From an uncultured Erysipelotrichaceae bacterium (GTDB taxonomy: Bacteria > Bacillota_I > Bacilli_A > RFN20 > CAG-826): 64,000 nt of DNA. The position numbers were made by a program, and so were the translations under genes. The DNA lies in contig CADCDA010000001.1 of assembly GCA_902800025.1 (NCBI GenBank), positions 88,288 to 152,287 of the forward strand, in the 5' to 3' direction. Of this stretch, positions 8,780-30,430 are shown in pieces (the first letter of the stretch is position 1; each line of letters starts with the position of its first letter). The notes under the pieces are model-generated. The model was not told the origin of the DNA. It did not search any database and worked only from the letters and a program-made list of their open reading frames with translations.

Positions 8780-9292
8780 TTATTCTTTTGTCTCCTCTTT
8801 AATTTTCTTCTGATTGCGTCGATGAATTAAATAGTAAACCAAAAATGTAATTCCTCCAAATAATAGATATCCAGAGAAATCAATTAAAATATCAGTAAAA
8901 GCAAACGCTCTTCCAGGAGCGGTTAATTGTAATAGTTCACTAATAACAGCAACTGATAAACCAAGCGCTAAAGAATTGATGACAATTCTCTTTTTCATCT
9001 TATCAAAATCAGTGTGTCCAAAAATGAATGTTAGAGTTGTTAAAATACCGCTAACACCAAATAGTCCGAAGTGTCCGATTAATTTCCTCACCAAATGGTG
9101 AGCGAATTCTGGATCAGTCGCAATTCTTGAATTAGGCGCTATTGCTTTAAAGATATTTATAATGAATTGAGTAATCCCTAAACTCTGTGAAGAACTACCA
9201 CTCGCATCTACTGCGCCTTCGATCAAAATGAAAATATTTATCGCGATTGATAAGGCTAGAAAAATAAAAAATAGTATCCTTCTCTTTTTCAT
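8780..9292 (-). CDS. VanZ-like family membrane protein
   Basis: 170 aa with 4-5 TM segments and VanZ-family topology. Its stop abuts the ABC exporter start, so the three genes are probably co-transcribed. Confidence 0.55.
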   Translation of the reverse strand: MKKRRILFFIFLALSIAINIFILIEGAVDASGSSSQSLGITQFIINIFKAIAPNSRIATDPEFAHHLVRKLIGHFGLFGVSGILTTLTFIFGHTDFDKMKKRIVINSLALGLSVAVISELLQLTAPGRAFAFTDILIDFSGYLLFGGITFLVYYLIHRRNQKKIKEETKE

Positions 9293-9305
9293 TCTAGAAA
9301 TAATT

Positions 9306-9336
9306 TTATATGAAAATTATATCTAAGTGTTATAAT
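9306..9336 (+). promoter_or_regulatory. Extended -10 promoter, probably producing a leaderless or near-leaderless mRNA
   Basis: TGtTATAAT at 9328-9336 sits only 7 nt before the ATG at 9344. No Shine-Dalgarno sequence is present. Confidence 0.5.
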
Positions 9337-9343
9337 AATCTCT

Positions 9344-10462
9344 ATGACAGTAGAAAAAATCAATGAACTCATTATAAATATCCTCGGTGAAGGGGCAAAA
9401 ATCGACCACGAAATGTTAGGTGGTATGATGAATATGTCTTACCAAGTCGTAGACAAAAATGGTAAGAAATATATCCTTTATATTCCAACCGAACAAGCTA
9501 ATGAAATGGTGGACCGTGTTTTAGAAAAAGAGCACCAAAGAATCATTTACGAATTAGGTATCACAAGCAAGAATGTTTATTTCGATGAAAAGACCGGTAT
9601 TAAAATGAACGAATTTATCGAAGGAGATTCCATCAATAATATCGCTTCTTTTGATTATGATAAAATTGCTGCATTATTCAAAAAGTTACATAGCTCAATC
9701 ATGCTATCTAGAAAAGACTACGCTCCATTTACTAGATTTACTGAAATCTATGAAAAAGAAGCCCTTGAATTTAATAAAGAAATTTCTCCTTTATATACTG
9801 AATTAAGGGACTTCCTATTCGCTAAACGTGATTTTTTAGAGTCTCAACCACTCGTTTTATCTCATAACGACGCTCAAAGAAGTAACATTGTCAAAACTCC
9901 TAATGATGAATACTATTTTATCGATTTTGAGTTCGTTGGAAATAACGATCCAATTTATGATATTGCGGCCTTTGGTAACGGTTTAGTGTCCGAAGGAAGA
10001 AAATTATTAGAAAAATATTTTAACGGTAACCCAACTGATAATGAAATTAGAAGATACTATTTATGGAGAATCTACATTTCCTTGCAGTGGTATAACGTCG
10101 CCATCACTAAACATTATCGCGGAGAAGGTGAGAAACATGGTTTCAACTTCTTAGATGTCGCTACTCATTTCTTAAATAACGCCAAAGATGCTTATGATGG
10201 ATATCATCTAGAAATTAGAGATAAAGAAGTTGAAGATGACACTATCGCTTTAATCATCACCACCTTAGATAAAGTTAGACATTTCTTAAGAAAAGATGGA
10301 GGAGACTGTGAATTTGTTTCCTTTGAAAATGGAGTGGTCTATGTCAAAATGCAAGGAGCCTGCGAAGGTTGCTCATTCGCTTATAATGACATTAAAGATT
10401 TAGTGGAAGTCATCCTCCAAGAAGAAGTTCCTGGAGTAGTTGAAGTTCGACTCGCGGAGTAA
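9344..10462 (+). CDS. Choline/aminoglycoside-kinase-like phosphotransferase fused to a C-terminal Nfu/NifU-like Fe-S domain
   Basis: Residues 1-300 carry the Brenner motif HNDAQRSNIV and IDFEF (ChoK/APH fold). Residues 300-372 match the NifU C-terminal domain (DGGDCEFVSFENGVVYVKMQGACEGCS). Confidence 0.6.
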   Translation: MTVEKINELIINILGEGAKIDHEMLGGMMNMSYQVVDKNGKKYILYIPTEQANEMVDRVLEKEHQRIIYELGITSKNVYFDEKTGIKMNEFIEGDSINNIASFDYDKIAALFKKLHSSIMLSRKDYAPFTRFTEIYEKEALEFNKEISPLYTELRDFLFAKRDFLESQPLVLSHNDAQRSNIVKTPNDEYYFIDFEFVGNNDPIYDIAAFGNGLVSEGRKLLEKYFNGNPTDNEIRRYYLWRIYISLQWYNVAITKHYRGEGEKHGFNFLDVATHFLNNAKDAYDGYHLEIRDKEVEDDTIALIITTLDKVRHFLRKDGGDCEFVSFENGVVYVKMQGACEGCSFAYNDIKDLVEVILQEEVPGVVEVRLAE

Positions 10463-10463
10463 T

Positions 10464-10538
10464 TGGGGTATAGCCAAGTGGAAAGGCATCTGGCTCTGAA
10501 CCAGACATTCCTTGGTTCGAATCCAAGTACCCCAGCCA
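10464..10538 (+). tRNA. tRNA-Gln (anticodon CTG)
   Basis: Acceptor TGGGGTA/TACCCCA, anticodon loop CTCTGAA, T-loop TTCGAAT, encoded CCA. It starts 2 nt after the upstream stop codon. Confidence 0.8.
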
Positions 10539-10540
10539 AA

Positions 10541-10576
10541 CAAAAAATAAACAGAAGCAATTGCTTCTGTTTTTTG
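10541..10576. terminator. Bidirectional rho-independent terminator
   Basis: Hairpin ACAGAAGCAA-TTGCTTCTGT between an A-run and a T-run. It would terminate the + unit (CDS plus tRNA-Gln) and the minus-strand IMPase gene. Confidence 0.75.
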
Positions 10577-10582
10577 ATATTT

Positions 10583-11377
10583 TTACTTAAGTAAATTTTC
10601 TTTTCTATTAACTACGATGTAACCGTTTCTATTATAGACATCTTCGCGGTTATAGGTAATTTCTTTGCCGTTTGGTTCAACGAATATTCCACCTGCTTCA
10701 GTAACGATAATTTGACACGCTGCAGTGTCCCATTCTTTCGTGTTAGGCGAAGAACGGAAAGTAATTTCTGCTAATCCATGAGCGATTGCACATGGCTTAA
10801 GTGAACTGCCCTTTTTCATTACGTGTTTAATGACATCGCTATGCCTTTCAATAAACTCTTCTTCATCCTTAGTAAAATGGAAGACAGAGGTGAGCATTGT
10901 TAAGTCGTTTATTTTATCATTTACGTGGATTCTTATAGGGTTTTCGCCTAATTTTTGATAAAATGCGCCATTGCCTAAACTTGCGAAATATAACTCATCA
11001 AGAGCAGGAGCAACAACGACTCCAACAACTAGTTTATGTTTATAGCTTAAGGCGATGTTCGTTGTGAATTGACCGTCTTTAGCAACGAAATCTTTCGTTC
11101 CATCAACTGGATCAACAATCCACACAAAGTCATTTTTAAGTCTATCCAAATTATCGGTGCTTTCTTCGGTTAGAAAGGCATGAGTAGGAAAGGCTTTATG
11201 TAAGTGTTCACGAATGATTTGATCAGCAGCCTTATCAGCGTTAGTAACTGGAGAATTATCTTCTTTGATTTCAACATCAAAGCCTTTGTTATAAATCTCC
11301 ATGATTTTATCTTTGGCTTTTAAGCCAGCTTTAATCGCTTCTTGTAATTCTTTTTCCCACATAATTATTCTCTCCAT
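10583..11377 (-). CDS. Inositol monophosphatase / 3'(2'),5'-bisphosphate nucleotidase family protein
   Basis: IMPase-fold motifs VWIVDPVDGT and WDTAA. Confidence 0.75.
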   Translation of the reverse strand: MERIIMWEKELQEAIKAGLKAKDKIMEIYNKGFDVEIKEDNSPVTNADKAADQIIREHLHKAFPTHAFLTEESTDNLDRLKNDFVWIVDPVDGTKDFVAKDGQFTTNIALSYKHKLVVGVVVAPALDELYFASLGNGAFYQKLGENPIRIHVNDKINDLTMLTSVFHFTKDEEEFIERHSDVIKHVMKKGSSLKPCAIAHGLAEITFRSSPNTKEWDTAACQIIVTEAGGIFVEPNGKEITYNREDVYNRNGYIVVNRKENLLK

Positions 11378-30085: not shown

Positions 30086-30430
30086 GTCTTCGATCCTGTA
30101 AGCCATGTTTTGTCTAGGATGATAATTTATCTAAGAATATTCTTACTTGAGTTGATTCGGTTCTCTATCAAGTCTCCCCTACCAAATTTGGGTTTCTCGC
30201 TTACGGGGTTTACCGCGTTCCACTTTGCTCTTTCAAACAAACTTCGTCACTGTGGCACTTTCAGGAATCCTACCATGGGTTGCCCTTTAGGTCGATTTCC
30301 GCCGTCACGCACTCCTACGTGCCTAGTGTTATTTTTTCCACTAGCGCAATCACTACAGCCGTCACAGACTGTGCGAGCATGGACTTTCCTCTAACTAACT
30401 AGTAGCCAGCAATCATCCAGATCGAAGGTT
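30086..30430 (-). ncRNA. rnpB: RNase P RNA, Bacillus type (type B)
   Basis: The minus strand contains AGAGGAAAGTCCATGCTCGCACAG, GGGCAACCCATGG, AAAGTGCCACAGTGACGAAG, GGAACGCGGTAAACCCC, GAAACCCAAATTTGGTAGGGGA and ACAAAACATGGCTTACAGGATCGAAG. The P1 helix pairs CCTTCGATC with GATCGAAG. It lies immediately downstream of gpsB, as in Bacillus subtilis. Confidence 0.85.

Follow-up and report, generated by a model that had tools for sequence, protein, structure and literature searches.

An in-frame fusion of a choline kinase-like domain to Nfu, followed directly by tRNA-Gln(CUG), in uncultured rumen and gut Bacilli: a probable merger of neighbouring genes

We report that a 64,000-nucleotide stretch of DNA from an uncultured Erysipelotrichaceae bacterium (GenBank assembly GCA_902800025.1, contig CADCDA010000001.1, positions 88,288 to 152,287; referred to as the window, to which all coordinates apply) carries a gene in which a kinase of the choline kinase (ChoK)/APH fold is fused in frame to an Nfu-type iron-sulphur (Fe-S) carrier domain, and that a tRNA-Gln(CUG) gene follows the fusion gene almost without a gap. 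The region 9300-10584 is best explained as a transcription unit complete in itself, from the genome of an uncultured member of the rumen/gut Bacilli. We consider it likely that the fusion arose by the merging of neighbouring genes, that its transcript is leaderless, that the tRNA is released from this transcript by RNase P, and that the two domains function independently. The fusion, the position of the tRNA and the spacing between the -10 element and the ATG recur in independent genomes, and we therefore regard it as confirmed that this layout exceeds chance.

The fusion protein and its distribution

The only plus-strand open reading frame (ORF) of the interval starts with ATG, ends with TAA at 10460-10462 and encodes 372 amino acids (aa; Table 1). 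Profile searches place both domains above the Pfam gathering cutoffs: Choline_kinase (PF01633) matches residues 23-210 with 53.1 bits (cutoff 29), APH residues 27-227 with 40.4 bits (cutoff 23.2), and NifU (PF01106) residues 306-368 with 73.3 bits (cutoff 27), the last match covering positions 3-66 of the 67 in the profile. The kinase domain has both the Brenner catalytic loop, HxDxxxxN, and the metal-binding D-x-E; these motifs (H174-N-D176-AQRS-N181 and D194-F-E196) as well as C340-EG-C343 of the Nfu part are invariant across 20 homologues. Residues H174, D176, N181, D194 and E196 are unchanged also in a distant alignment with relatives of 31-45% identity, and the mean column identity over the 290 residues of the kinase domain is 80%, i.e., the domain is under strong constraint. 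The AlphaFold model of the fusion protein has a mean predicted local distance difference test score (pLDDT) of 86 and a predicted template modelling score of 0.76, and the pLDDT dips at the linker. An earlier sequence-only reading of the region had described exactly this combination of a ChoK/APH domain (HNDxxxxN, DFE) with a NifU C-terminal domain (CxxC), and its account of the protein stands with all motifs intact.

A search of 5.8 billion protein clusters recovered 816 homologues, and in all of the best 120 of these both domains are present (68-99% identity; 354-392 aa, mostly 371-376). In a HMMER scan of 1.84 billion 50%-identity representatives both domains were covered by one cluster (P0095) among the best 150 hits; the remaining full-length hits among these 150 are kinases of ~285 aa, Nfu proteins of ~80 aa and kinases with other partners, the rest being fragments. 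The search for the same fusion that the sequence-only reading had suggested thus finds it to recur and to be rare: the architecture is real, yet restricted to one narrow clade. The sequence-only reading had also named a frameshift between the domains, or a C-terminal part lacking a NifU match, as grounds for rejection. Apart from the NifU match given above, an identical 372-aa protein is found on 16 contigs from public assemblies and the same uninterrupted frame in 21 genomes from different studies, which together with the homologue clusters excludes a frameshift or a chimeric contig; that two separate genes were joined by an assembly or sequencing artefact is hardly credible. Cluster look-ups for the homologues gave almost no curated names; the sole name attached to the fusion architecture is the automatic NCBI annotation "NifU family protein [Bacilli bacterium]". 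Literature searches for an Nfu/choline-kinase fusion gave nothing relevant.

The tRNA-Gln(CUG) gene and the predicted co-transcript

A single base, T10463 (U at position -1), separates the TAA stop from tRNA-Gln(CUG), which has a U1-A72 pair, G73 and an encoded CCA. The start "2 nt after" the stop codon, as it had been described, corresponds to the second base after the stop with exactly one spacer nucleotide. The terminator noted behind the tRNA was also found, as a 10-bp hairpin at 10549-10572 with a T-run; it scores on both strands, folds as predicted (z = -4.0 for the tRNA plus hairpin segment) and is common to the fusion unit and the convergent inositol-monophosphatase-family gene.

For comparison, 74 related loci (L numbers) were collected by a scan of one genome per GTDB species. 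They derive from metagenome-assembled genomes (MAGs) of uncultured rumen, gut or digester "Bacilli/Erysipelotrichaceae", plus Coprobacillus, and their architectures were established by ORF reading, ARAGORN and separate tblastn searches for each domain. A tRNA-Gln gene lies directly after nfu on the same strand in 21 of 21 fused and 41 of 42 unfused loci (62 of 63 in total, the exception being a contig end), the unfused loci comprising adjacent, separated and isolated nfu genes. The gap is 1 nt in 18 of the 22 fused genes including that of the window (TAA-T-TGGGG; range 0-5 nt) and varies between -10 and +21 nt relative to the end of the nfu stop in the unfused loci (n = 42), and most related loci have a hairpin with a T-run behind the tRNA. 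The isoacceptor is CUG throughout, save behind the first of two nfu copies in L059, where it is tRNA-Gln(UUG). A search with the Nfu domain alone, aimed at distant taxa, gave only close relatives; the nfu-tRNA linkage is documented for this lineage and Coprobacillus.

A tRNA promoter embedded in nfu should show up as a block of synonymous constraint; third-codon-position entropy over 60 nfu genes revealed none. Since this agrees with a gap that has no room for a promoter, we conclude that a single transcript has probably carried nfu and tRNA-Gln(CUG) for a long time in this lineage. The only simple interpretation is that of the sequence-only reading, in which the tRNA is processed from the mRNA 3' end; it is supported by the 1-nt gap, the conserved tRNA position and the lack of a conserved promoter inside nfu. 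RNase P RNA of class B is encoded at 30094-30424 on the minus strand (Rfam, 273.9 bits), which fits a low-GC Gram-positive host and would supply the enzyme for the proposed release. Low-GC Gram-positives generally use RNase Y and RNase J instead of RNase E, and RNase Y is encoded in the window.

The closest precedent is E. coli secG-leuU, in which a protein gene and a tRNA gene share one transcript with an intrinsic terminator and the mature tRNA 5' end is generated by RNase P; this cut detaches leuU from the secG message, which is then quickly degraded (PMC2241853). The fusion locus has the same layout, with both genes on the same strand, no room for a terminator or promoter between the ORF and the tRNA, and a terminator after the tRNA. 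It differs from secG-leuU in its single-nucleotide spacer, in its probably leaderless mRNA, in its low-GC Gram-positive host and in that the gene-tRNA pairing is kept in all recovered related loci with nfu, save the one at a contig end.

CAG accounts for 33 of the 363 Gln codons (9%) in 25 window genes, so tRNA-Gln(CUG) serves a rare codon. The major tRNA-Gln(UUG) is part of a Val(UAC)-Tyr-Gln(UUG)-Lys-Leu(UAA) cluster at 1414-1860. This cluster is syntenic with the kinase locus across the lineage (L003, L007, L031, L034 and others): in many relatives it lies upstream of the kinase locus at a distance of ~65 nt to ~3.5 kb, and in some the tRNA-Leu gene ends 65-160 nt before the kinase. In the window the cluster and the kinase are separated by minus-strand genes spanning ~7.5 kb (adhE, rex, two ABC transporters and vanZ).

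Two loci have unusual arrangements of nfu and tRNA-Gln. In L047 (CAVEYA010000029.1; L047:727-1037) a stand-alone nfu is without its usual stop codon and its frame enters tRNA-Gln(CUG) by 10 nt, ending ...caa ctT GGG GTG TAG, where the stop codon corresponds to tRNA nucleotides 8-10. An RNase P cut would here leave a non-stop mRNA; the packing may truly be this extreme, or the sequence of this one MAG may contain an error. L059 (CAJOQN010000101.1; L059:1-960) carries two nfu copies, each followed by TAA-T and a tRNA-Gln gene, with copy 1 leading into tRNA-Gln(UUG)-Lys-Leu and copy 2 into tRNA-Gln(CUG). In either copy TGcTATATT stands 7-8 nt ahead of the ATG, i.e., in leaderless geometry. The arrangement suggests that the nfu duplication arose by recombination between the two tRNA-Gln genes.

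The promoter and a probable leaderless start

The extended -10 element TGTTATAAT ends 7 nt ahead of the ATG at 9344, and there is no Shine-Dalgarno (SD) sequence. The duplex energy with the anti-SD is +0.1 kcal/mol for the 17 nt before the ATG, compared with a median of -7.3 kcal/mol for 45 long ORFs of the window, most of which have a clear GGAGG-type SD site. A9344 is the only purine at the expected transcription start position. An ATG at 9434, inside the GGMMN P-loop, is the only SD-like option for an alternative start; it was rejected, as it removes the conserved N-terminus that aligns with LicA of Streptococcus pneumoniae from residue 4.

The 60 nt upstream of the kinase start were aligned for 51 sequences, fused and unfused. 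The motif TAnnnT lies 4-12 nt upstream of the ATG in 40 of these and is also TG-extended in 32; in 31 of these 32, and hence in 31 of the 51 orthologous regions, TGnTAnnnT is placed 6-8 nt from the ATG. The start codon is AUG in every locus that has this 6-8 nt geometry, and a pyrimidine is present at -1 in all fused loci. Since unfused kinases share it, the geometry predates the fusion. Other arrangements are also present: in L020, L027 and L042 the kinase stands directly behind plsC with no promoter, and L031, L032 and L045 have a GAGGA SD sequence in place of the leaderless geometry. In agreement with the sequence-only reading, which had placed an extended -10 element at 7 nt from the ATG with no SD, the promoter bears the standard signature of a leaderless mRNA, from which we infer the transcription start, and the fusion gene is probably translated without a leader.

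Leaderless mRNAs known in bacteria include lambda cI, Tn1721 tetR and those of many actinobacterial genes. The fusion gene resembles them in having a -10 element ~7 nt before the would-be 5' AUG and no SD, and differs in that its start is predicted; moreover, since most other genes of the window use an SD, it is an exception within its own genome. Stand-alone nfu genes also lack an SD and have their own near-consensus extended -10 element (TGTGCTAATAT or TGTGCTATTAT) 7-19 nt before the ATG.

History of the fusion

The related loci form a series of architectures. The separated class (8 loci) has kinase and nfu on one strand, with nfu 1.1-3.6 kb farther downstream; the genes in between run in the opposite direction in the two of these with ORFs examined (L034 and L048). 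In two Coprobacillus loci it is nfu itself that lies on the strand opposite to the kinase. The adjacent class (10 loci) has a kinase ORF of 285 aa, a spacer of ~50-105 nt and a 76-aa nfu with its own start codon. The fused class consists of 21 loci and the window. Neighbour-joining analysis of the kinase domain groups all fused sequences in a single clade, which means that the fusion arose a single time. The junction retains the end of the kinase (...DGYxxEIK) as well as the beginning of Nfu (DDTxxLIxxTLDK...), with about five residues joining them; what was lost is therefore the stop codon of the kinase, the spacer and the start codon of nfu. The linker takes the place of the kinase stop, the ~90-nt spacer with the nfu promoter, and the nfu start of the adjacent-gene relatives.

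The nfu-tRNA-Gln(CUG)-terminator module is, as far as the comparison of loci indicates, ancestral in the lineage. Because both this module and the leaderless kinase promoter predate the fusion, the fusion looks like a merger of neighbours and not a designed pairing. It would be an opportunistic merger, as judged also from the opposite-strand genes in L034 and L048, from the promiscuity of the kinase family in fusion partners, and from the substitutions Met29 and Tyr46 in the kinase, which were present before it (see below).

We propose the following course of events. A deletion that began at the stop codon of the kinase and reached the start codon of nfu would have joined the two frames and removed the nfu promoter, leaving the leaderless kinase promoter as the sole evident driver of kinase, Nfu and tRNA. 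Transcription would start at or beside A9344, with ribosomes loading straight onto the 5' AUG, and the primary transcript would continue through the tRNA to the terminator at 10549-10584. RNase P would then cut after U10463, freeing the tRNA and leaving an mRNA that ends 1 nt beyond its stop codon and that, by analogy with E. coli secG-leuU, is probably short-lived; the 3' trailer and terminator would be trimmed to the encoded CCA. Placing a rare-codon tRNA behind a protein gene may be a means to express a tRNA in low demand. The two domains most likely keep separate jobs: the kinase would phosphorylate a small polar alcohol of membrane-lipid or teichoic-acid head-group metabolism, and the Nfu domain would dimerise via its CxxC and carry an Fe-S cluster to client enzymes. 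The window encodes two Fe-S client enzymes, namely an endonuclease III carrying a 4Fe-4S domain and a radical-SAM enzyme of the MiaB/RimO type.

The kinase domain

The best solved relative by profile is LicA of S. pneumoniae (PDB 4r77; E = 9e-31, residues 4-240), which is also the best structural match of the AlphaFold model (Foldseek E = 5.5e-16, template modelling score 0.75 on the target), followed by other choline/ethanolamine kinases. The domain shares with LicA (PDB 4R77/4R78/4R7B; PMC4364537) the bacterial short-loop ChoK fold and the catalytic residues Asp176, Asn181, Asp194 and Glu196, which are conserved at identical numbering, at an overall identity of ~26%. The two differ elsewhere in the active site: Thr29, Asn32, Lys45, Val178, Glu180 and Tyr197 of LicA are here Met, Ser, Tyr, Gln, Ser and Phe, and Glu213, the counter-charge to the quaternary amine, has no equivalent, since FGNG stands where LicA has LFLE. 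The choline-binding set (Thr29, Glu213 and the cage Tyr197/Trp251/Trp254/Tyr268) is thus not retained, Thr29 being replaced by an invariant Met and Tyr197 by Phe; of the aromatic cage only W249 is plausibly aligned as Trp, and the C-terminal cage residues are aligned without confidence. Likewise the clade has an invariant Tyr46 where LicA has the basic beta3 residue Lys45, which contacts phosphate, and most ChoK have Arg. Met29/Tyr46 marks the wider clade of the window, unfused members included, while Ser29 and Arg46 are retained in relatives at 31-37% identity. With Thr29, Lys45 and Glu213 all replaced, orthology of the kinase to LicA is not demonstrable.

Membership in other families was rejected on NCBIfam scores, namely for GntI (67 bits against a cutoff of 357), thiamine kinase (49 against 299) and CcrZ (NF046102; 14.2 against 400). 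The Firmicutes cell-cycle kinase CcrZ/YtmP (PDB 7S3L), a housekeeping kinase conserved in single copy in Bacilli, shares the APH/ChoK superfamily fold (PMC9135335); the match to the fusion kinase is weak (7s3l, E = 6e-5 over residues 86-207), and the latter is not a member of this family.

Gene context is the best clue to the function of the kinase. In 16 unfused loci (L020, L025-L032, L035, L039-L043 and L046) it is the last gene of a same-strand run that consists of a DAGK_cat/YegS_C lipid kinase gene (dagK), a PlsC-type acyltransferase gene and the ChoK-like kinase gene, with the plsC stop and the start of the kinase gene overlapping or abutting in L027 and L042. A divergent VanZ-like gene takes the position of the dagK-plsC run in the fused clade. 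LicA by comparison sits in the lic operon, whereas the kinase discussed here is associated with dagK-plsC and with a C-terminal Nfu domain; no lic-type domains (licB/licC/licD context) were found among the Pfam-annotated genes of the contig stretches examined, which overlap most of the window. We assign the domain as a presumably active ChoK-family small-molecule kinase, for which "choline kinase" is a label of fold and family only, and which most likely acts on a polar head-group precursor.

The kinase family seems prone to fusion. In three relatives with 36-40% identity (P0140, P0141 and P0143) the kinase forms the C-terminal part of a fusion with a Ham1/RdgB non-canonical nucleoside triphosphate (NTP) pyrophosphatase, and several further hits of 470-500 aa, identified by their length and by the kinase position, carry the kinase at the C-terminus as the Ham1/RdgB fusions do. 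Another relative, P0167, has a C-terminal cNMP-binding/Crp helix-turn-helix module, and other distant relatives are fused to nucleotidyltransferases (NTP-transferase). The Ham1/RdgB-fused relatives, which are of the canonical Ser29/Arg46 type, hint at nucleotide metabolism, whereas in the closer relatives synteny with dagK-plsC speaks for lipids.

A kinase-only sister clade of the fused genes is represented by L023 (L023:832-2175) and L024. Here a response-regulator-like gene follows the kinase, the N-terminus of which may be extended by a hydrophobic stretch of ~165 aa (open frame of 447 aa); nfu and tRNA-Gln are both absent from the vicinity.

The Nfu domain

The Nfu part is the orthologue of the 76-aa stand-alone Nfu of the sister genomes (66-91% identity) and matches the NifU-like protein of Staphylococcus epidermidis (1xhj; E = 1.3e-14). 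Its CxxC cysteines, C340 and C343, are invariant in 20 fused proteins and 60 nfu sequences. As in stand-alone bacterial Nfu (1XHJ), the Pfam NifU match is full-length and the CxxC is present; the stand-alone proteins have their own start codon, whereas the domain here is start-less and tethered to a 290-residue kinase. As there is no in-frame start codon ahead of V331/M336, the Nfu domain can be made within the fusion protein only. Further stand-alone Nfu proteins are S. aureus Nfu and B. subtilis YutI, and we know of no report of a tRNA-Gln(CUG) gene directly behind the nfu genes of Staphylococcus or Bacillus.

Alternative explanations

Several observations weigh against the proposed explanation. 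The kinase lacks equivalents of Thr29, Lys45 and Glu213 of LicA, such that a choline-like substrate, and even activity, is not assured. The persistence of the fusion throughout its clade, down to ~66% identity and with invariant residues in both domains, fits a selected coupling. The Nfu coding region holds a promoter-like sequence, TTGAAA-16-tgCAAAAT (10323-10350), that could drive the tRNA alone. Furthermore, transcription start, co-transcript and RNase P site are deduced from geometry and conservation, and the search for lic partners covered contig stretches. The promoter-like sequence at 10323-10350, with its TG extension ~113 nt upstream of the tRNA, is the natural candidate if the tRNA has its own promoter in the 3' coding region and the mRNA merely overlaps it, and AT-rich coding DNA may indeed hold promoters. 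Matches of this kind are, on the other hand, frequent in DNA of 35% GC (the scan gave 13 promoter-like sites in the region, where 6.8 are expected by chance), this one is unconserved, and its hexamers fall on variable codons with no conserved third-position block in the 60 nfu genes. There is also no terminator between the ORF and the tRNA, which implies read-through from the upstream promoter in any case. We therefore judge independent expression of the tRNA to be quite unlikely.

A functional fusion, in which the Fe-S cluster or the dimerisation of Nfu switches the kinase in response to iron, oxygen or redox state, or in which the kinase regulates Fe-S delivery, is a somewhat more serious though still unlikely proposition. 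It would account for the retention of the fusion in every member of the clade (at least 22 species-level genomes), for the invariance of the CxxC and the catalytic residues, for the presence of kinase and nfu within 4 kb of each other even when unfused, and for the unusual Met29/Tyr46 in the nucleotide-binding lobe. However, the opposite-strand genes between kinase and nfu in L034 and L048 make the ancestral linkage one of synteny and not of an operon, and Met29/Tyr46 is not tied to the fusion, since unfused relatives carry both residues. The joining of kinase relatives to unrelated partners (Ham1/RdgB, Crp-like, NTP-transferase) suggests promiscuous fusion, and the linker is short and predicted with low confidence. 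The same two substitutions, Thr/Ser29 to Met and beta3 Lys/Arg46 to Tyr, could instead have abolished phosphotransfer, in which case the protein would be a pseudokinase or scaffold and in effect an enlarged Nfu, as its NCBI name might imply. In LicA the Thr29 hydroxyl is required for activity (T29A keeps ~10%) and Lys45 touches a phosphate mimic (PMC4364537); both positions are replaced in the clade, while distant relatives keep Ser29/Arg46. Given that all five catalytic and metal-binding residues are invariant even in relatives of 31-45% identity, that the whole kinase domain is constrained, and that unfused Met29/Tyr46 kinases are maintained as separate genes, we find loss of activity very unlikely. 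A more far-reaching idea, to which we give little credence, is that the locus is a regulatory device in which tRNA maturation sets the fate of the Nfu mRNA and an Fe-S-gated kinase is tethered to it. If so, the RNase P cut 1 nt past the stop (in L047, before the stop) would set the lifetime of the Nfu mRNA and its mode of termination, Fe-S delivery would be coupled to tRNA processing or growth rate, and in the fused clade the sole Nfu, tethered to a head-group kinase with a remodelled Met29/Tyr46 lobe, would make an iron/redox-sensing small-molecule kinase.

Significance

There are precedents for each element: ChoK/APH kinases such as LicA, Nfu carriers, leaderless mRNAs and operons of the secG-leuU type. 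What appears to be undescribed is the ChoK/APH-Nfu domain fusion, the lineage-wide nfu-tRNA-Gln(CUG) transcription unit with its gap of -10 to +21 nt, and the Met29/Tyr46 kinase subfamily tied to dagK-plsC. If the predicted transcript is right, the locus is a very clean natural model in three respects: low-GC Gram-positives would have in it a case of leaderless translation, it would provide a bacterial counterpart of "tRNA punctuation", in which RNase P cuts one base past the stop, and it presents a gene fusion that can be seen at all its stages, i.e., separated, adjacent and fused. It also points to an uncharacterised and widely conserved ChoK-like subfamily beside dagK and plsC in rumen/gut Bacilli, the active site of which departs from LicA at experimentally important positions. 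Current understanding is not overturned; the chief value lies in annotation, since "NifU family protein" conceals a kinase, and in a tractable test case.

Locus layout and flanking features

The coordinates of the features are compiled in Table 1. The unit is flanked by a divergent VanZ-like gene upstream (8780-9292, minus strand; Pfam VanZ) and a convergent inositol-monophosphatase-family gene downstream (10583-11377, minus strand), the stop codon of which ends at 10583. An Rfam scan of 9000-10900, run at E values up to 1, gave no RNA element beyond the tRNA and sub-threshold noise.

Table 1 Features of the fusion locus (window coordinates)
Feature	Coordinates	Strand	Basis and remarks
Inverted repeat ATAATTTT-ATATG-AAAATTAT	9300..9320	.	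Over the -35 region; read from sequence
Extended -10 element TGtTATAAT	9328..9336	+	Sequence; without a good -35
Fusion ORF	9344..10462	+	372 aa; coordinates include the TAA stop
LicA-like ChoK/APH-fold small-molecule kinase domain	9344..10213	+	~residues 1-290; Pfam, PDB profile, Foldseek
Short linker EIRDKEV	10214..10234	+	~residues 291-297; comparison with L030, L042 and L021
Nfu-type (NifU C-terminal) Fe-S carrier domain, C340-x-x-C343	10235..10459	+	Pfam NifU, PDB 1xhj
tRNA-Gln(CUG), anticodon CTG	10464..10538	+	ARAGORN; Rfam 66.5 bits; alignment
Bidirectional intrinsic terminator	10549..10584	.	10-bp stem and 4-nt loop at 10549-10572, then T-run

The inverted repeat, with arms of 8 bp and a centre of N5, lies within the 51-nt divergent intergenic region between the VanZ-like gene (minus strand) and the fusion gene (plus strand). 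Its arms are kept, with at most one mismatch per arm and a variable centre, in the window and in 14 of the 20 other fused loci examined; it is a candidate operator for some regulator, or may reflect overlapping divergent promoters. In the L007 group another palindrome, ATACAATTAATAATTGTAT, is located further upstream. The VanZ-like gene is likewise without a recognisable SD before its ATG at 9292, and a minus-strand TATAAT (9321-9316) is located 23 nt upstream of this ATG; it may thus be a second SD-less gene that uses the same short intergenic region.

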